A stretch of 64,000 nucleotides of DNA from Hemiscyllium ocellatum (taxonomy: Eukaryota), in the NCBI RefSeq assembly GCF_020745735.1, contig NC_083417.1:49972001-50036000 (forward strand), given 5' to 3'. How positions within the stretch are numbered: position 1 is the stretch's first letter; every line of letters starts with the position of its first letter. Under the pieces are notes generated by a model. That model saw nothing but the letters and a program-made list of their open reading frames with translations, was not told the origin of the DNA and made no database searches. Both the position numbers and the translations under genes were made by a program. Below, piece after piece: positions 1,956 through 27,684 of the stretch.

Positions 1956-2851
1956 AAAAGCAGTATTGTTCAAACCCAAGCGAATGATGTTCACTCATTG
2001 AATTGTGGAATAACTGGCCAGGATGTACAGCCTTTGTTTCTGTCTGTCAAATAATTTTAAAGCACATTGTTTCTCAAATGTTTGAAACTTCAGGACAAGT
2101 TTTGGATATTCACCTCACTTGCTGATGATAATACATTAAAAGATAGCAATATGTGTACATGAGATATACCTATTGGCATGATCTGTGCTGCCAGTCAGTT
2201 GTTTGCAATAACCCTTGCAGGGAAAACAGCACTTTAAATGTTATACTAGATGATGGCATGGAAGCTGTTTAGTGGTTATCTTGCTGCATTATGAATTATA
2301 GTAACTTGCAAGATGTCTTGAAATGGTTAAAGGTGGATAAATCCCCCGGACCTGATCAGGTGTACCCGAGAACTCTGTGGGAAACTAGAGAAGTGATTGC
2401 TGGGTCTCTTGCTGAGATATTTGCTGGAGGTTGACAAACGTGGTGCCACTGTTTAAGAAGGGTGGTAAAGACAAGCCAGGGAACTATAGACCGGTGGGCC
2501 TGACCTCAGTGGCGGGCAAGTTGTTGGAGGGAATCCTGAGGGACAGGATGTACATGTATTTGGAAAGGCAAGGACTGATTCGGAATAGACAACATGGCTT
2601 TATGCGTGGGAAATCATGTCTCACAAATTTGATTGAGTTTTTTGAAGAAGTAACAAAGATGACTGATGAGGACAGAGCAGTAGATGTGATCTATATGGAC
2701 TTCAGTAAGGCGTTTGACAAGGTTCCCCGTGGGAGACTGATTAGCAAGGTTAGATCTCACGGAATACAGGGAGAACTAGCCATTTGGATACAGCTGCAAA
2801 TGTGTTGCTGGTCAAAGCACAGCAGGTTAGGCAGCATCTCAGGAATAGAGA

Positions 2852-2887
2852 ATTCGACGTTTCGAGCATAAGCCCTTCATCAGGAAT
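2852..2887 (-). ncRNA. Minimal type I hammerhead ribozyme motif (copy on the inverted arm)
   Basis: Exact reverse complement of 3271-3306. Confidence 0.78.
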
Positions 2888-3270
2888 AAGAGAGAGAGAG
2901 CCAAGCCGGCTGAGATAAAAGGTAGGGAGGAGGGACTAGGGGGAGGGGCGATGGAGGTGGGATAGGTGGACGGAGGTCAAGGTGAGGGTGATAGGCCGGA
3001 GTGGGGTGGGGGCGGAGAGGTCAGGAAGAGGATTGCAGGTTAGGAGGGCGGTGCTGAGTTGAGGGAACCGACTGAGACAAGGTGGGGGGAGGGCTCTCTC
3101 TCAGCACCGCCCTCCTAACTTGCAATCCTCTTCCTGACCTCTCCGCCCCCACCCCACTCCGGCCTATCACCCTCACCTTGACCTCCTTCCACCTATCCCA
3201 CCTCCATCGCCCCTCCCCCTAGTCCCTCCTCCCTACCTTTTATCTCAGCCGGCTTGGCTCTCTCTCTCTT

Positions 3271-3306
3271 ATTCCTGATGAAGGGCTTATGCTCGAAACG
3301 TCGAAT
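3271..3306 (+). ncRNA. Minimal type I hammerhead ribozyme motif
   Basis: AUUC-CUGAUGA-A-GGGC-UUAU-GCUC-GAAAC-GUC-GAAU. Full catalytic core, stem I AUUC/GAAU, stem II GGGC/GCUC and palindromic ACGU stem III. Predicted cut after C3302. Confidence 0.8.
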
Positions 3307-5282
3307 TCTCTATTCCTGAGATGCTGCCTAACCTGCTGTGCTTTGACCAGCAACACATTTGCAGCTGTGATCTCCAGCATCTGCAGACCTCATTTTTTAC
3401 CATTTGGATACAGAACTGGCTCAAAGGTAGAAGACAGAGGGTGGTGGTGGAGGGTTATTTTTCAGACTGGAGGCCTGTGACCAGTGGGTTGCCACAAGGA
3501 TCGGTGCTAGGTCCTCTACTTTTTGTCAATTACATAAATGATTTGGATGTGAGCATAAGAGGTACAGTTAGTAAGTTTGCAGATGACACCAAAATTGGAG
3601 GTGTAGTGGACAGTGAAGAGGGTTACCTCAGATTACAAGAGGATCTGGACCATATGGGCCAATGGGTTGAGAAGTGACAGGTGGAGTTTAATTCAGATAA
3701 ATGCGAGGTGCTACATTTTGGGAAAGCAAATCTTAGCAGGACTTATACACTTAATGGTAAGGTCCTAGGGAGTGTTGCTGAACAAAGAGACCTTGGAGTG
3801 CAGGTTCATAGCTCCTTGAAAGTGGAGTCGCAGGTAGATAGAATAGTGAAGAAGGCGTTTTGTATGCTTTTCTTTATTGGTCAGAGTATTGAGTACAGGA
3901 GTTGAGAGGTCATATTGTGGCTGTACTGGACATTGGTTAGGCTACTGTTGGAATATTGTGTGCAATTCTGGTCTCCTTCCTATCGGAAAGATGTTGTGAA
4001 ACTTGAAAGAGTTCAGAAAAGATTTACAAGGATGTTGCCAGGGTTGGAGGATTTGAGCTATAGGGAGAGTCTGAACAGGCTGGGGCTGTTTTCCCTGGAG
4101 AGTCGGAGGCTGAGGGGTGACCTTATAGAGGTTTACAAAATTATGAGGGGCATGGATAGGATAAATAGGCAAAGTCTTTTCCCTGGGGTTGGGGAGTCCA
4201 GAACTAGAAGGCATAGGTTTAGGTGAGAGGGGAAAGATATAAAAGAGACTTAAGGGGCAACATTTTCACGCAGAGGGTGGTACGTGTATGGAATGAGCTG
4301 CCAGAGGAAGTGGTGGAGGCTGGTACAATTGCAACATTTAAGAGGCATTTGGATGGGTATATGAATAGGAAGGGTTTGGAGGGCTATGGGCCAGGTGCTG
4401 GCAGGAGGGACTAGATTGGGTTGGGATATCTGGTCAGCATGGACAGGTTGGACTTGGAGGGCCTGTTTCCATGCTGTACATCTCAATGACTCTATGTTAC
4501 CTTATAATAATCTTCTTGCACTATTTCCATTCTCTGTTTTTTGTTGCTGTTGACTGGATGAGATGCCAATATCTGAATAACTCTTGTGCTGTCAATGGGT
4601 TATACTTGATATGAGGTATAAGCTTTACAATGAAAACAAAGCTCTCCGGTGATCATGACAAAATTCCTTTTATAACCAAAATGTGATTAAAATCTGGAAC
4701 ACAGTCCTTAAAAGCTGTTGAAGTTAGATCAATTGAAAATTTCAAGAAAAACTATACTTTTGTTAGGTGCATTCTGGAACCAAGGTGGATAACGGTGCAG
4801 AAAGGGACAGATGATCTCTTTTTAATGAGAGAGCAGTTTCAATGGGCTGGATGATCTACATGAGAGTTGTGAAAGCCAAACTTCAGTACTCTGTATCAGA
4901 GGATTAACATTTTATTTTTATAAATTGATTACATTAAGGACACTTAAGGCCATTTAGGAGATAACAAGATTACATCAATAAACTTGAGTCTCCATATTTT
5001 TCTCTCCTGTGTTGGAGAATATCTGAAGGAATGCCACAAAGTTATATTGTACCTTTTTGCAAAATTCTGAAATTCCAGAAGAAATAAAACTTTATTAAGC
5101 TGTCAGGAGGTTTCTTGTACAGACGTGACACCTTATTAAATGGTACGTCCATTGGCTGACAACACAAATAATCTTCAGCTGAGCAATGGTTTAGAATAGC
5201 GTGATGCAGGGTTGGCTGCAGGGAATGGAAAGCATACCGGTTTGGAAGCACTGTGCAGAGGAATACACTTTTTATTCATCCA

Positions 5283-8341: not shown

Positions 8342-8568
8342 AGGAGAAAGTGAGGACTGCAGATGCTGGAGATCAGAGCTGAAAATGTGTTGCTGGAAAA
8401 GCACAGCAGGTCAGGCAGCATCAGGCAGGTCAGGAGCAGGAGAATCGCCGTTTCGGGCACAAGCCCTTCTTCAGGAAGAAGATTCCTGAAGAATAATCCT
8501 CATTCCTGAAGAATACCTCCTTGGATGCTGCCTGACCTGCTGCACTTTTCCAGCAACACATTTTCAGC
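8342..8568. mobile_element. Penelope-like mini fold-back insertion
   Basis: Tail gaggactgcagatgctggagatc, then inverted arms gagctgaaaatgtgttgctggaaaag...cttttccagcaacacattttcagctc. 14-bp duplication tcctaaaacctatt at 8328-8341 and 8569-8582. Damaged hammerhead in the centre. Confidence 0.82.
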
Positions 8569-20262: not shown

Positions 20263-22075
20263 ATACATTTTCAATTTAATATCTGATTTGCAAAATACAG
20301 ATAACAAAAAACTTCAGTTGGTTCAAGGCTCAAAACAGAGATTTTTTTATTCTCAAAATGTGAATTTGAATCTGAATCAGGACGTTTTGTGGATGTTACA
20401 AAAGTCATTTACATCTGTGTTTCAATTTTTAAAAAAATATTAATTCACGGGATGTGGACATCACTGGTCAAGCCTGTGTTTATTGCCCATTTAAATCCAT
20501 GACGACTTCCGTTTAGTAGGACAAGGGCAGAAGATGCATGGGGAATACCACCACCTTCAAGTTCCCCTTCAAGCCACTCACCATCCTGACTTGGAAATAA
20601 TATTGCACTTGCTTCACTGTCAAAGGGGTCAAAATCCTGGAATTCCCTCCCCAATGGCATTGTGGAGGGACTGCACAATCCAACACTGGCCAACCTATGA
20701 CAGGTGGACTACAGCAGTTCAAGGAGGCAGCTCACCTCCTCAAGGGCAGTTAGGGACAGGCAATAAATACTGGCCAACTAACAATGCCCACGTTCCACAG
20801 ATTGGTTAAAAATTGTTCTCAAAGGCGATCACATTGCTGTGGGTCTGGAGTTGCATGTGGTCCAGTCCTGACTAAGACAACAGATTTTCTTTCTGAAAAA
20901 AAATGTTTTGCCATTTGGTCAACTTTTTAATTCCAGATTTTTACTGAATTCAAATTCCACTATCGAATTTGAACCCATGCACCCAGAATATTAATCTGGG
21001 GATTCTGATTACTAGTCCAGTAATAGTATTGCAACACCAACACCTTCCTTGCATTTTAATCCATTAGGGCACAGAGATTAATATTAGTATCTCAGAGAAA
21101 CTGAATAAAGATGCAGCATTTCTATGAAGATTGAATATTTGTTACAGCTGTAAAATTGCAAGGGTTTGCTGTAAAATTTGACTGGATATGTCTGGCAAAG
21201 TGTTATGTATGCAGTTAGGGGTCCTGCCCCTTTAAGAGAGGTGATCATGTGACCTAGAGAGGCAGAGCTTGGGTCCAGTCTGGAGCTGGCTGTGGAGGTG
21301 TGGATGGTTAGTAAAATGCTCCTGTTCAGATTCACCATTTGTCTACCTGCTATATAATTCCTGGTTATAAAGGGAACACCAACATAACAGAAAGGATGAC
21401 TCTTTTGGCAAAGAGAAATTAAAATCTATTTGCTTCAAATTGGTTACATCATGGAAATAAATAATCTGAAAATTTCAACTTGGATTCCCAATGTTCATGG
21501 TATTGCAAATGCTGTTTATTTTTGGTAAAGAATAATTTCAAACAAATGTTTTTTTGCATTTCAATTCTGATTCATGTGCATTCCACCCATTTGTATCTTA
21601 AAATGCGCAAGAGGTATAGGACTCCCATGTCTGAGGCTATGTCTGTTTTTCAGCTTAATTCAAGATAGATTTACAGATAAGATGGTAAGTGATGTCTTGC
21701 CATTTTCAACAAGCTATGCCCTTGTACCTGAAAACAGGGGTGCAGATTGAAATAACTCTACAGATATTGGTATTCAGTCCCCAAGTCATCCTTTATTTGC
21801 ATGTGGAAAGTCATTGACAATGATCTCGCTCCCTCAGAAGCAACTCTCAGAGTGAACAGGATGTCTGACACTCCTGTTTTTCACTTTTTCTTTGGAGAGT
21901 TCTTGACAGTGACCAAGCTCCCACAGAGCCAGCTCTCAGAGTAAGCAGGATGTCTGTACTATTACTTATTTCCCATTTCTAAGTCACCCTTTATTTACAC
22001 GTGGAGATTCCTTTGCATGATCCAGCTCCTTCAGAGTCAGTGCTCAGAGTGAACAGGATGTCTGACACCCCTGTT

Positions 22076-22279
22076 CATTTTTTCTCTTTTCTCTTTTCTC
22101 TTTTCCCATGTCGCTTGTGTGCAGGTGTTGGACACAGTGAGAAACAACAAATGTGTAAATCTTTATTTATATTCCACCACCAGGAAGAAAGGAAACACCC
22201 GAGTGGACAGTAACAAGCAGTGCCCATCTGAAAGGGCAATGCTGCGATATCAAACAGTGAAGGGGAGAGCAGGGATTAA
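22076..22279 (-). mobile_element. Non-LTR retroposon 3' end (Tx1-like), copy 1, inside the LTR
   Basis: A-rich tail on the minus strand, flanked by acacccct and acactcct. Homologous to copies 2 and 3. Confidence 0.7.
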
Positions 22280-22286
22280 ACACTCC

Positions 22287-22543
22287 TTTTTTTTGTTTTT
22301 CTTTTTTCTTTATTATAACCCCCACACTACTACCCTAACTGCGGTAGTGCTTATTTTTCCTAGCACCCATGTTGTGTGTGTGCAGGTGTGAGACACAGTG
22401 AAAGACACAAGGTGTACAAATCGTTATTCAATTTCCATCATCAGGAAGAAAAGAAACACCCGAGTAGCCAGTGACAAGCAGTGCCCTTCACATCAAAGGG
22501 CAATGCTGCGTGATCAAATAGTAAAGGGGAAGACAGGGATTAA
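22287..22543 (-). mobile_element. Non-LTR retroposon 3' end (Tx1-like), copy 2, in tandem with copy 1
   Basis: A-rich tail, flanked by acactcct and acgctcct. Confidence 0.7.
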
Positions 22544-23613
22544 ACGCTCCTGTTTTTATCTGTCAGGCAGGGCTCCCTGATAGCACCAGGTTAGCAGCCC
22601 CAGTTAGGGAACTCATTCTGAGGTTCACCTGGCTGACTGCGTTACAATTACTACATCCCTCCCCCAAGTCCTAGGACATAAGCCTGTTCTTCTTCTTGTA
22701 GCTCCTCCTGGGGTGTTTTTACACCAGCTCAGGTTCCTCTGACTCTGCCCCAGATATGGGTGGCATGTAACATACAATAGCTCACCTCTTGTGCCCAGGG
22801 TGTCTTGGCAGAAATTCGTTCTTCTCTTCAGGTGGCAAATGTATTGAGGTGGTGACAGTCGGCTTATACATCACAGATTTTGAGGTATCTTTAATACTTG
22901 ACGGAGAGGGAGAAGCCACCGGTTCCATCAGCCTTTTCAACTGTTCCAGGGAGCTGGGCATTTTTTGCTCTGGCTCTGTTTGCAAGTTTGTAGCTTTCAT
23001 ATGGACCATGTGCTCATTCAGGACCGTCACACCTACCCAAACCTCATACATCAATGGAACTGATCTTGTGTCGACCTTGTCTCTCATCTTTGCAGGACCA
23101 TTTCCATGGTTCCTACACCAAACTTCATCCCCTGATACCAACCTTTCAGTTCTCACTGTACTCCGGCCTAGTGGGACTCTTTTGCTGTCTCCAGTCCACA
23201 TACCAGCGGCAACTACAATGGCTGACCGGCCCGGATCCTAAAGAAAATTTTAATCATTTGGCCGAGGCTTGGCTTTGTTTTGGGGTTTGCTTTGGGCTGA
23301 CCTAGAGTCCCTCTGTTCAGGATATGTCATAGAGTCATAGAGATATACAGCATGGAAGCATTCCCTTCGGTCCAACCTGTCCATGTCAACCAGATATCAC
23401 AACCCAATCTAGTCCCACCTGCCAGCACCGGCCCCATATCTCTCCAAACCATTCCTATTCATATACCCATCCACATGCCTTTAAAATGTTACAATTGTAC
23501 CAGCCTCCACCACTTCTTCTGGCAACCCATTCCATACACGTACCACCCTCTGTGTGAAAACGTTGCCCCTTAGGTCTCTTTTATATCTTTCCCCTCTTAC
23601 CAAAACCTATGCC

Positions 23614-23845
23614 AAGAATAGAAATTGAAGACTGCAGATGCTGGAGATTAGAGCTGAAAAATGTGTCGCTGGAAAAGCGCAGCAGGTCAGGCAACATCCA
23701 AGGAGCAGGAGAATCGACATTTCGGGCATAAGCCCTTCTTCAGGAACCTTCCTGAAAAAGGGCTTATGCCCAAAACGTCGATTATCCTGCTCCTTGGATG
23801 CTGCCTGACCTGCTGCGCTTTTCCAGCAATATATTTTTCAGCTCT
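23614..23845. mobile_element. Penelope-like mini fold-back insertion
   Basis: Tail, then 97-nt inverted arms at 23650-23746 and 23749-23845 with a 2-nt loop. Duplication aaacctatgcc at 23603-23613 and 23846-23856. Each arm has a hammerhead motif. Confidence 0.85.
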
Positions 23846-24528
23846 AAACCTATGCCCTCTAGTTCTGGACTCCCCCACCCCAGTGAAAAGACTTTGTCTA
23901 TTTATCCTATCCATGCCTCTCGTAATTTTGTAAACTTCTATAAGGTCACCCCTCAGCCTACGACACTCTAGGGAAAACAGTCCCAGCCTGTTCAGCCTCT
24001 CCCTATAGCTCAAATCCTCCACACCTGGCAAACTCCTTGTAAATCTTTCAAGTTTCACAACATCTTTCCAATAGGAAGGAGACCAGATTTGCACGCAACA
24101 TTCCAACAGTGGCCTAAACAATGTCCTGTAGAGCCGCAACATGACCTCCCAACTCCTGTACTCAATAATCTGACCAATAAAGGAAAGCATACCAAACGCC
24201 TTCTTCACAATTCCTATCTACCTACGACTCCACTTTCTAGGAGCTATGAACCTGCACTCCAAGGTCTCTTTGTTCAGCAACACTCCCTAGGACCTTACCA
24301 TTAAGTGTATAAGTCCTGCTAAGACTTGCTTTCCCAAAACGCAGCACCTCGCATTTATCTGAATTAAACTCCATGTGCCACTTCTCAGCTCATTGGCCGT
24401 TGGCCCATCTGATCAAGATCCTCTTGCAATCTGAGGTAACATTCTTCGCTGTCCACTACACCTCCAATTTTGGTGTCATCTACAAACCTGCTAACTGTAC
24501 CTCTTATGCTCGCATGCAAATCATTTAT

Positions 24529-24775
24529 TCTGGATCAGTGGTGCTGGAAGAGCACAGCAGTTCAGGCAGCATCCAATGAACAGCGAAATCGACGTTTCGG
24601 GCAAAAGCCCTTCATCAGGAATAAAGGCAGTGAGCTGGAAGCATGGAGAGTTAAGCTAGAGGAGGGTGGGGTGGGGAGAGAGTAGCATAGAGTACAATGG
24701 GTGAGTGGGGGAGGAGATGAAGGTGATAGGTCAGGGAGGAGAGGGTGGAGTGGATAGGTGGAAAAGAAGATAGGC
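24529..24775 (-). mobile_element. Penelope-like pLTR fragment (related subfamily) with intact hammerhead core
   Basis: Minus strand CUGAUGA-A-GGGC-UUUU-GCCC-GAAAC-GUC at 24587-24622. It replaces ~10 nt of the host CR1 relative to the copy at 3515-3542, with no duplication. Confidence 0.78.
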
Positions 24776-26065
24776 AGAAGTAGAGGACCTAGCACTGATC
24801 CTAGTGGCACTCCATTGGTCACAGGCCTCCAGTCTGAAAAACAACTGTCCACCACCACCCTCTATCTTCTAACGTTGAGCCAGTTCTGTATCCAAATGGC
24901 TAGTTCTCTCTGTATTCCATGAGATCTAACCTTGCTCACCAGTCTCCCATGGGGAACCTTGTTGAATGCCTTACTGAAGTCCATATAGATCACATCTATT
25001 GCTCTGTCCTCATCAATTCTCATTGTTACTTCTTCAAACAACTCAATCAAGTTTGTGAGACATGATTTCCCATGCACAAAGCCATGTTGACTATCCCTAA
25101 TCAGTCCTTACCTTTCCAAATAAATGTACATCCTGTCCCTCAGGAATCTCTCCAACAACTTGCTCACCACTGAGGTCAGGCTCACTGGTCTATAGTTCCC
25201 TGGCTTGTCCTTACCACCCTTCTTAAACAGTGGCACCACGTTTGCCAACCTCCAGTCTTCCGGCACCTCACCTGTGACTATCGATGATACAAGTATCTCA
25301 GCAAGAGGCATGTCCTGAGTCAAGTTATGCAATCGTCTTTACTCAAATGCTATTCCCCAAGCTCAGTCAGACTGGTGAGGGTCGATCAGAATACCCTGCA
25401 ACTCACATGCTCCACTTGCCACATATTCCAATAAGAAAGCCAATTGTAGTGCCTGTTTGAAGTCCAGTTAGGCTTCAGCTACAAGGCGTTTTTGCATGGT
25501 TACATCATTAATCCCACATACCAAACAGTCTCTCAGCATCACGTTAAAGGCTTCAACCAAAACCACATGCCTCTGTTAGTCAGTAAAATCTCAGTATGGA
25601 TTCCTCTAGTTCTTGAATTGCCTAAGAAAAATGATTGCAACTCAAAATTTTGGGGTCATACTATTCCTTAACTACGTCCGTCAACTCTTGAAAGGTTTTA
25701 GTATCTGGTGTCTCAGTGAAAGTGAGAGTCCGAATAACCAAAAAAGCTATGGGACTGCAAATTTTCAAGGGAATTACGTGTTGCCTTTCATCTGCCCCAA
25801 TGTCATTTGTCCAGAAAAAAATAACACATTCTTTCCACATACTGGACCCCAGTCTTTGATGGCAGGATTGAATGAGTCAAGCCTCCCAAATAACAGCTTG
25901 ATGCCAGAAATGCTTACCCCAACTCAAAATGACAATGAATCTCTTCAGGAGCATATTTGCTCTCAATGCCACAAAAATAGCTCCACAGAGGCTGGTGTCC
26001 AATCACCACGTCAGCCTTTATTTACATGTGGATAGCTCTCCAAGTGTCAGAACCTCTGACACTCC

Positions 26066-26329
26066 TTTTTTTTTAATATTTTAATCACCAGTATAAATGA
26101 CAAACAAACAGTGAACATGAACAGCAGTATACAAGAAACAACAATTTACAGGGAAAGGGAATGGCAAAGTCAGACCCCAAACCCTATCGTTCAACCAGTT
26201 TTCAGGTGAAATGGGGACAAACCTCAAATCCCACTTTCAGTCATTACAAAAATAATAAATACATACAAGACTTTCCAGTCAAATGAGAAACAGTGCATAG
26301 CATGCAGACACCCCCAGCAACCCAGTAAG
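26066..26329 (-). mobile_element. Unrelated A-tailed retroposon end inserted at the same LTR motif
   Basis: T9 tract directly after tctgacactcc, ending before atgctcctgtttt. No homology to the other three inserts. Confidence 0.55.
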
Positions 26330-26444
26330 GATGCTCCTGTTTTATTTGTTTTTTTGACACTGCTCCAGCTTCCTCAGAGCCAGTTCTCAGAGTGACCAGA
26401 CTCTCTAATACTCCTGGTTATTTTTACTGCTGACACTCCAGTTT

Positions 26445-26723
26445 ATTTATTTTTTCTTTTTTTTTCTTAAACCCCCACACTACTGCCTAACTGCGGTAGT
26501 GCTTATTTTTTCCCCAGCACCAATGTTGTGTGTGTGCAGGTGTGAGACACAGTGAAAGACGCACGCTGCATGAATCTTTATTCAGTTTCCACCACCAGGA
26601 AGAAAGGAAACACCCGAGTGGCCAGTGACAAGCAGAGCCCTTCACATCAAAGGGCAATGCTGTGTGATCAAACAGTGAAGGGGAGGGCAGGGATTAAATC
26701 AAAATAGAGTTGGAGGGGGAAGA
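26445..26723 (-). mobile_element. Non-LTR retroposon 3' end (Tx1-like), copy 3, inside the other LTR
   Basis: Flanked by acactccagttt and acactcctgttt. The minus strand begins with a putative ORF end SPSNSILI*, then AATAAA and an A-rich tail. Confidence 0.72.
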
Positions 26724-27684
26724 ACACTCCTGTTTTAATCTGTCAGCCATGGCTCCCTGATTGGACCAGATTAAAAGCCCCAATCAGGGAACTTTTATTC
26801 TATCAGGTCCACCTGGCTGACCTTGTTATAATCACTACAAAGATCCCCTTCTATCAGTGTCAATGCAAACTTGTTAGTATCTTTTATATTTGTCATCCTA
26901 TCTTTTTATTTTCAAACAAATTTGAATAACAACTGGGTTTGTCATGACATTAATAAAGTAATTCTTTAGGTTTTTCTTAAAGCCTTATTTATTTTGACCT
27001 GGAGAAAAGATTGAAATTGTACCTTGAATGATTTGATTGCTTCAATTACCAGTTGTGACATTGAATGTGGAAAGAAGACTATTAAGGGAGAAATAAAGCA
27101 TATGAGAGTTTAAGTGAGGTAACATTGATCCAAGCATATAGTACAAGTACAAAGGCCAGCAGAGTTTTGTATAAAGTAGTATGTAGTTATCAGTTGTTCA
27201 ATATGGTACGGAGACATGTGGACTGAAGTTCTGTTGCACGTCACAGATAAGCTCAGAGATGGATATGAATGAATCACTGATGAAAGTAAAAGAAAAATTG
27301 AGAATACTGGAAACTGAAACAGAAATCTGAATTTGCACAAAATCCATTGAAAATTTACTGGAACGAATGGCACAAACACTGTGGAAATACAATGCATTGT
27401 AATTTTATTGGTTTCAAATGGAACTTGTGAAACAGAAGGCCAAGTTTCAAAACTAAACAGAATTCTACAGTACATATGCTACAACCATTGCTTTTGTCCA
27501 GTGAGATTCCATAGTGGAAGCCTCGGCTCTGAAAACTATCCTTTTCTACCTAACATGGTATCAGTCCAGGTAAAATGTTCAGATCTCTTGATGCTTGAGG
27601 AAACAAATGGAATGTAGTCTGGCCTATCATGAAGAATGATGACTATGATGACTTCCCAAAGTCTTTATCAGTCTTCCCAAAATG

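Follow-up and report, generated by a model that had tools for sequence, protein, structure and literature searches.

The LTR retroelement at 26839-21748 on the minus strand of the window, by which we mean the whole stretch of 64,000 nt analyzed here (G000:C50:49972001-50036000) from a 3.98-Gb genome that, by its repeat content, is likely a shark's, carries short A-tailed pieces of LTR sequence inside both of its LTRs. This raises the question of where these pieces come from and how they were stacked at one site. The element is composed of the following parts:

21748..26839, minus strand: whole host LTR element, starting with TG and ending with CA, with a 5-bp target-site duplication containing one mismatch
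26736..26839, minus strand: right (5') LTR head
26445..26735, minus strand: target copy, Tx1 LINE piece (ORF2 end and 3'UTR) and A-rich tail
26420..26444, minus strand: very short extra unit (about 26444-26426) and A-rich linker
26343..26421, minus strand: long extra unit reaching 26356, then an A-rich tail; the unit agrees with the LTR L255 at 64 of 69 nt
26071..26342, minus strand: target copy, member of a second A-tailed retroposon family (26330-26080) and tail
25973..26070, minus strand: native terminal unit of the right (5') LTR, internally deleted
25330..25970, minus strand: internal remnant of the host element, which we take to be gag-like (no Pfam match)
23326..25323, minus strand: unrelated dispersed LINE insertion in the internal region, presumably of CR1 type, with nested SINE pieces
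22660..23320, minus strand: internal remnant of the host element, presumably integrase-tail-like (no Pfam match)
22556..22655, minus strand: left (3') LTR head, U3-like, with CCAAT-like and TATA-like boxes and preceded by a polypurine tract
22292..22555, minus strand: target copy, 5'-truncated Tx1 LINE 3'UTR piece 1 (22545-22318) and A-rich tail
22077..22291, minus strand: target copy, LINE 3'UTR piece 2 (22280-22105) and a tail of a 7-nt A-rich repeat
21979..22076, minus strand: extra LTR unit U1, ending 11 nt past AATAAA, with private variants common to L216, L079 and L084
21958..21978, minus strand: decayed A-rich linker, its start common to L079 and L084; the target motif of U2 is lost
21893..21957, minus strand: extra LTR unit U2, forming in register with U1 the block that C1:6.59 Mb and C1:6.49 Mb also carry
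21880..21892, minus strand: A-rich tail of the transduced block
21748..21879, minus strand: native target motif, followed by the native 3' unit of the LTR with initiator-like site, AATAAA and terminal CA

The original prediction described three copies of one segment in the left LTR and one long and one very short copy in the right LTR. Copies of repeat family D14 were indeed located at 21820-21878, 21909-21967 and 22017-22075, with a further copy at 26360-26418 (68-85% identical to the reference copy), and the right LTR contains the very short (about 26444-26426) and the long copy (about 26421-26356). A tandem array was detected at 21814-21980 (score 197). The third left copy, at 21879-21748, constitutes the native end of the LTR and extends as far as the terminal CA and target-site duplication; the left LTR thus harbors two extra units, not three. 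The native terminal copy of the right LTR with its internal deletion (26070 to about 25973) had been missed. The extra copies vary in their end points, one of them stopping soon after AATAAA, as had been described. The middle copy (about 21957-21893), however, has lost the motif at which every copy was said to start and is absent from the motif scan, and the A-rich linker reported behind every copy follows the extra copies, but not the third one. Genome-wide, at least 1,844 candidate copies of the unit were found, which marks it as a repeat far beyond chance.

The host element shows paired TG...CA LTRs, a short duplication, a polypurine tract and a primer-site-like sequence. Its internal region contains gag-like and integrase-tail-like remnants and no RT region. 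No Pfam match above the cut-off was obtained for the element and the homolog search was also empty; it may belong to the Gypsy/Ty3 superfamily. In most of its copies only 113-142 bp separate the gag from the integrase remnant, with RT absent between them, and most copies are internally deleted (L238, L195, L045, L092 and others). Exact 5-bp target-site duplications were present in 3 of 10 LTR copies inspected. According to empty copies elsewhere, the native LTR consists of a head of ~100 nt, the target motif and a 3' unit of 133 nt. The target motif overlaps a TATA-like hexamer. Among the 14 LTR copies fitting a strict pattern, 13 have an initiator-like site 29 nt past the target and 8 a CCAAT upstream of it. 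The two LTRs of the window are 80-82% identical, while their first LINE pieces are 91% identical and have differing 5' junctions. The LTR element is old, and this divergence together with the differing junctions indicates that the arrays were likely built after its integration. The native units of the LTR pair (26070 and 21879) belong to different subtypes directly after the target, which is unexpected within one pair and suggests conversion or an old recombination.

The predicted proteins of the LINE found at this target place it in the Tx1 clade of non-LTR retrotransposons, by pairwise similarity nearer to Tx1L than to L1. One copy, L104, possesses open frames of 770 aa (ORF1) and 1312 aa (ORF2). 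ORF2 has an APE-type endonuclease (Exo_endo_phos, 3.6e-13), an RT domain (RVT_1, 1.4e-36) and a C-terminal zinc region (zf-RVT, 1.1e-4, below the curated cut-off), and ORF1 has a candidate zinc knuckle (zf-CCHC, E = 0.003 and 18 bits against a cut-off of 20.8). Compared with ORF2 of Xenopus Tx1 (Tx1L), ORF2 shows 51% identity at 100% coverage (1397 bits), whereas human L1 ORF2 reaches 280 bits. L104 (L104:2841-9101, minus strand, G000:C9:27.67 Mb) is a near full-length, likely recent Tx1 copy with both frames open, located inside a long array. Among the top-scoring other copies of the LINE, 17 of 29 3' ends lie within LTR sequence; Kojima 2015 (PMC4494074) takes more than 20% of flanks within a single type of sequence as the mark of Tx1 target preference, and this share is exceeded. 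A target-like motif follows the tail at 20 of 29 3' ends, counted with a loose pattern and without shuffle control. The LINE occupies the TATA-like box of the LTR and a copy of the target site brackets each insertion. As insertion duplicates the TATA-like target, arrays grow.

The head of the LINE is similar to the LTR unit. Thirty 5' ends of full-length LINE copies (L105-L134) were compared: 11 follow the target and an LTR unit, 16 follow a 3'UTR piece and 3 follow neither. The 3'UTR piece ahead of these 16 always stops at one fixed point, and having a piece of its own 3'UTR before its head provides the LINE with LTR-like direct repeats at both ends. In L177, L183, L187 and L192, among 24 of 28 loci processed, the upstream piece has no downstream partner. 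This suggests that transcription of the LINE starts upstream, and the LTR promoter is its likely source. The same target is also occupied, in the window (26080-26330) and in L123, L139, L148, L046 and L238, by members of a second family of A-tailed retroposons, whose sequence is unrelated to that of the LINE 3'UTR.

The number of units differs between LTRs. Among 29 other LTRs found by the unit, 20 have a single unit without LINE, 2 have LINE pieces only and 7 harbor extra A-tailed units. A LINE or the second retroposon was present at the target in 5 of 28 LTRs found by the head (30 loci minus the query and one duplicate). The original prediction had asked for such a count and had named a fixed number of units with invariant linkers or the lack of A-rich junctions as outcomes that would speak against it; numbers vary and the junctions are A-rich. 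Genome searches were made with the unique flank that some units carry beyond the LTR end. A donor was found in 11 of 11 cases, and the flank continues there without an A-run. In total 11 donors and 14 daughters were traced, with matches 78-97% identical and unique flanks of 28 to about 800 nt; L003, L094, L184, L193 and L195, with very short or repetitive flanks, were left out of these searches. Three donors have two daughters each, whose 3' ends differ.

At three non-LTR sites (L216, L033 and L034) a LINE end, an A-run, the target, an LTR piece and another A-run are enclosed in one duplication. This is the plain signature of LINE read-through, and it bears out the expected co-occurrence of extra units with LINE 3' ends, with two of the three cases coming from a search with the LINE as query. 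In L010, L027, L048 and L071 a local variant of the target brackets a LINE end, an A-run, a donor-type target, the unit and its flank; in L006, L225 and L234 this structure was ambiguous (all judged by eye). The donors of the former four are empty today. Read-through from the LINE is directly visible for some units and deduced for the rest.

The extra units of the window also lead to other loci. When the U1-linker-U2 block of L079 was searched against the genome, only L079 (C1:6.59 Mb), L084 (C1:6.49 Mb) and the window were recovered (159 bits; next match 92), and in all three U1 ends at the same point, the linker begins alike and U2 stands in the same register. Judged from this agreement, the window's U1-linker-U2 appears to have come as one block, which was cut at U2 position 77 and A-tailed; one event can deliver two units, as in this block. 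Identity between the window and the L079 block is only 84%, and U1 of L079 carries a deletion missing from U1 of the window. The template was therefore an earlier state of L079 or a common donor. With U2 alone as query, L079 was not singled out (score 100 vs 98). In L079, U2 continues into a primer-site-like region and a gag remnant, and a full-length LINE lies directly upstream; its second unit is probably native there. A unit of U1 type is also present in L216, which has two variants in common with the window, L079 and L084 that are private to these four. The genome search for the original donor of U1 gave only L216, L079 and L084, and the search for a donor of the second unit of L079 gave none better than generic copies. 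L079 and L084 are inverted segmental duplicates, 94-98% alike downstream. L084 is without the LINE body held by its duplicate and the private 3' end is identical in both, which fits recombinational loss or gain of the LINE body.

In the right LTR the long unit is closest to the empty solo LTR L255 (C55:58.69 Mb), with which its target variant also agrees. This link relies on the ranking in the search (103 bits, against 98 for the next match) and on the alignment; a motif count for the variants missed both L255 and the window's long unit, and the rarity of the variants is not taken from that count. In the left LTR, LINE 3'UTR pieces 1 and 2 have an identical 5' junction, and the 3' end is shorter in piece 2. 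The U1-linker-U2 block would have come first and the LINE pieces would have been added in front of it later.

The 3' ends of the units were mapped relative to the LTR poly(A) signal. From 60 calls of A-tailed units, 15 were dropped (native ends by A-rich sequence, the LTR's own AATAAA, and duplicates), as were 3 LINE-head pieces. The remaining 42 curated units end at positions 14-30 (19), 31-80 (14), 81-93 (1), 94-121 (3) and 122 or beyond (5). The cluster of 19, drawn from many loci and placed at about positions 18-27, halts just short of the initiator-like site. Unit ends 8-35 nt past the AATAAA of the LTR account for 3 of 42. The expected relation to the LTR poly(A) signal is thus mostly absent, and this signal was rejected as the main cause of the unit ends. 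An AATAAA created at the junction of tail and target was likewise rejected as the cause of the short-unit cluster, as most upstream linkers are without AATAAA (by eye). An AATAAA or ATTAAA within 45 nt upstream of the flank breakpoint was present in 0 of 7 daughters tested (7 of the 14). Several flank breakpoints coincide with short A-runs in the donor, and one L225 daughter ends about 12 nt past an AATAAA of the flank.

On the 5' side, adjoining pieces often have an identical junction and private variants in common and then diverge. From this pattern we infer that the cDNA paired with matching sequence downstream of the nick. The 5' joins would thus often be homology-guided, with long duplications (about 290 bp around the full-length L104 copy, about 95 bp in L027 and at least 40 bp in L175). 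Segments of the arrays are duplicated locally and almost exactly in L041, L052, L060, L184 and L110/L111, in some cases together with their private SINE insertions, and recombination, too, reshapes the arrays.

RNA data were available from a related species. In a single-cell poly(A) run (85% likeness) the LINE 3'UTR was covered ~600-fold on one strand and the unit ~45-fold. In the short reads of this one run the LINE 3'UTR and the unit occurred on one strand, and no RNA molecule spanning LINE and unit was observed. Poly(A) was found at about unit position 106, ~20 nt past AATAAA, in 16 reads (2% of one run), which indicates that the LTR poly(A) site is likely real.

Taken together, the extra LTR pieces are best explained as copies of other LTR loci at the target of the Tx1 LINE, likely as 3' transductions on read-through RNA, to which we assign a probability of about 0.78. 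RNA polymerase would run past the 3' end of the LINE into the LTR and further, and target-primed reverse transcription would begin at an A-rich 3' end. The cDNA may frequently pair with a match just downstream of the nick, so that units would start at the motif and long duplications would arise. The original prediction, that read-through transcripts of a target-specific LINE reinsert at the same site, holds insofar as the LINE is target-preferring, the target is regenerated, and LINE end and LTR piece travel together. The units, however, come from other loci and not from read-through of the LTR's own LINE.

Alternatively, the Tx1 proteins could have picked up in trans a LINE-free RNA that spans the LTR and starts from the LTR promoter or a host promoter, and homology could have guided its joining at the target. 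Donors do resemble a random draw of LTRs: 8 of the 11 flank-traced donors (L070, L166, L168, L207, L209, L233, L247 and L250) are empty solo LTRs, as is L255, and LINE parts are present at 3 of 11 donors, which does not differ from the 5 of 28 seen as background (Fisher p = 0.66). In the LINE-bearing donor L229 the LINE is only a 370-bp piece; at donor L209, contigs of other individuals showed no filled allele that stood out from the swamping family copies. Capture in trans also happens. A 370-nt unique sequence from L253 (C3:89.28 Mb), with neither LTR nor LINE, is inserted at the target in L226/L252 and ends 17 nt past AATAAA, and the second retroposon family shares the site. This insert shows short homology at its 5' join and resembles a retrocopy of the end of a cellular RNA. 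One daughter, the second unit of L010, begins at the initiator-like site, and sense RNA covers the LTR in the related species. In L071, L010, L048 and the window's long unit, however, donor-type variants extend upstream past the initiator-like site and reach into the target, and RNA begun at this site was therefore rejected as the general template. LTR heads, moreover, were found inside an array in 0 of 107 cases, the bracket structure occurs in four daughters whose donors are empty, and a LINE is present in all three off-target cases (two found by LINE query). The variants in the target, the missing heads and the brackets favour a LINE on the template, and the capture of LINE-free RNA is unlikely to be the general source of the units.

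It is still harder to reconcile the data with units that were never copied from RNA, in which the cut left end would have invaded another LTR as DNA, copied unit and flank, and then joined a poly(A)-only insertion. Such invasion would explain why donors are empty as often as the background LTRs, why units start at the motif, why breakpoints lack poly(A) signals and why several of them fall on short A-runs of the donor. It predicts a local target copy at the start of the unit, but this copy is of donor type in L048, L010, L027 and the window's long unit; daughters with a LINE tail upstream have only about 12 nt in common with the empty donors, and the off-target partnered cases offer no local LTR as a start, which makes this route highly improbable. 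Local duplication, whether through unequal crossover, through slippage or through a long target-site duplication formed around an insertion of poly(A) only, is refuted as the general cause and left as that of a minority of exact repeats. In its favor, near-exact tandem copies of unit and linker occur in L184 and L060, and 5' junctions are commonly duplicated locally. Against it, the foreign unique flanks have donors elsewhere and cannot be supplied by unequal crossover, a unit and the one after it agree in subtype in no more than 11 of 25 uncurated pairs, and the private variants of the window's units are common to other contigs and not to the native unit.

With 3' transduction on LINE read-through RNA as the preferred reading, the empty donors call for an account of the missing LINE. 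The donor LINE would have been lost later, most likely since the active allele never became fixed, and in some donors perhaps by recombination between terminal duplications. Loss of unfixed source alleles is the best reading; excision of the LINE by recombination or capture of LINE-free RNA may be alternatives. A more speculative, rather doubtful version is that the LINE is a hit-and-run element, which lands on the TATA box of the LTR to gain a promoter and is popped out by recombination between its terminal direct repeats, restoring the empty LTR. These repeats, of tens to hundreds of bases, would tentatively derive from the 5' head and homology-guided joining. If so, thousands of active copies would have vanished with the stacked transductions as their sole trace, and the arrays would be a dated chronicle of a self-erasing LINE lineage.

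Several components of this system are already known, as far as the portions of the cited papers used here go: Tx1 elements that prefer LTRs and tandem insertion around a duplication (PMC4494074, PMC2718515), and 3' transduction (PMC9311842). Kojima 2015 (PMC4494074) describes Tx1 LINEs targeting transposons, namely Xenopus Tx1L in Tx1D and the crocodilian Tx1-8_Crp and Tx1-4_AMi in LTR retrotransposons, as well as tandems of SINEU-3. The LINE described here belongs to the same clade (51% ORF2 identity to Tx1L) and likewise has its site in another transposon. Tandem insertions around the duplication, a second non-autonomous family and the proposed use of a flanking promoter are further shared features. 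In contrast, the portion of that paper considered contains no stacked 3' transductions, traced donors or long homology-guided duplications. Passages of Stage and Eickbush 2009 (PMC2718515) report that R1 arrays in 28S rDNA grow by insertion into the regenerated duplication, and that the R1 RNA carries target sequence at its 5' end, whose annealing to the target makes the joins precise. Array growth through a regenerated duplication and annealing of target sequence at the 5' join are common to both systems. R1 arrays, however, consist of LINE copies with a 14-bp duplication between them, whereas the arrays here also include A-tailed pieces from downstream of the target and foreign unique flank, and the homology used sits downstream of the nick.

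As in human L1/SVA 3' transduction, described in passages of PMC9311842, an A-tailed flank is copied to another chromosome, a source can have several offspring, some sources are missing from the reference, and lengths range from tens to hundreds of bases. According to the same passages, 6 of 7 prolific human donors have a poly(A) signal 10-40 nt upstream, compared with 0 of 7 tested breakpoints here. L1 is not site-specific and its transductions scatter, whereas those of the site-preferring LINE collect; human sources are mostly in the reference, whereas the donors here are mostly empty (PMC9311842). Repeated insertion at a preferred site is known to produce tandem TE dimers; the part of McGurk and Barbash 2018 (PMC5932611) considered describes dimers of whole elements, whereas here the flank of the target is transduced. 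The portion of PMC4640811 considered holds nothing on arrays of this kind. A literature search, with most subscription papers, Repbase and supplements outside its scope, gave no stacked transductions at an LTR target and no mostly empty donors; an earlier description is possible.

The site preference gathers transductions that L1 would scatter, and each LTR array thus becomes a readable log of donors and daughters. The arrays also form a natural test of how LINE 5' ends are joined, here by homology located downstream of the nick and with duplications of as much as about 290 bp, and of the share of fixed insertions that stems from source elements never fixed or excised. The LINE also carries LTR promoter and poly(A) sequence from chromosome to chromosome, along with as much as 800 nt of unique DNA.

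Elsewhere in the window, head-to-head SINE pairs form long inverted repeats (2790-3368, 23648-23847 and 8382-8564), among which inverted repeat I2 measures 269 nt at 99% and I25 99 nt at 92%.
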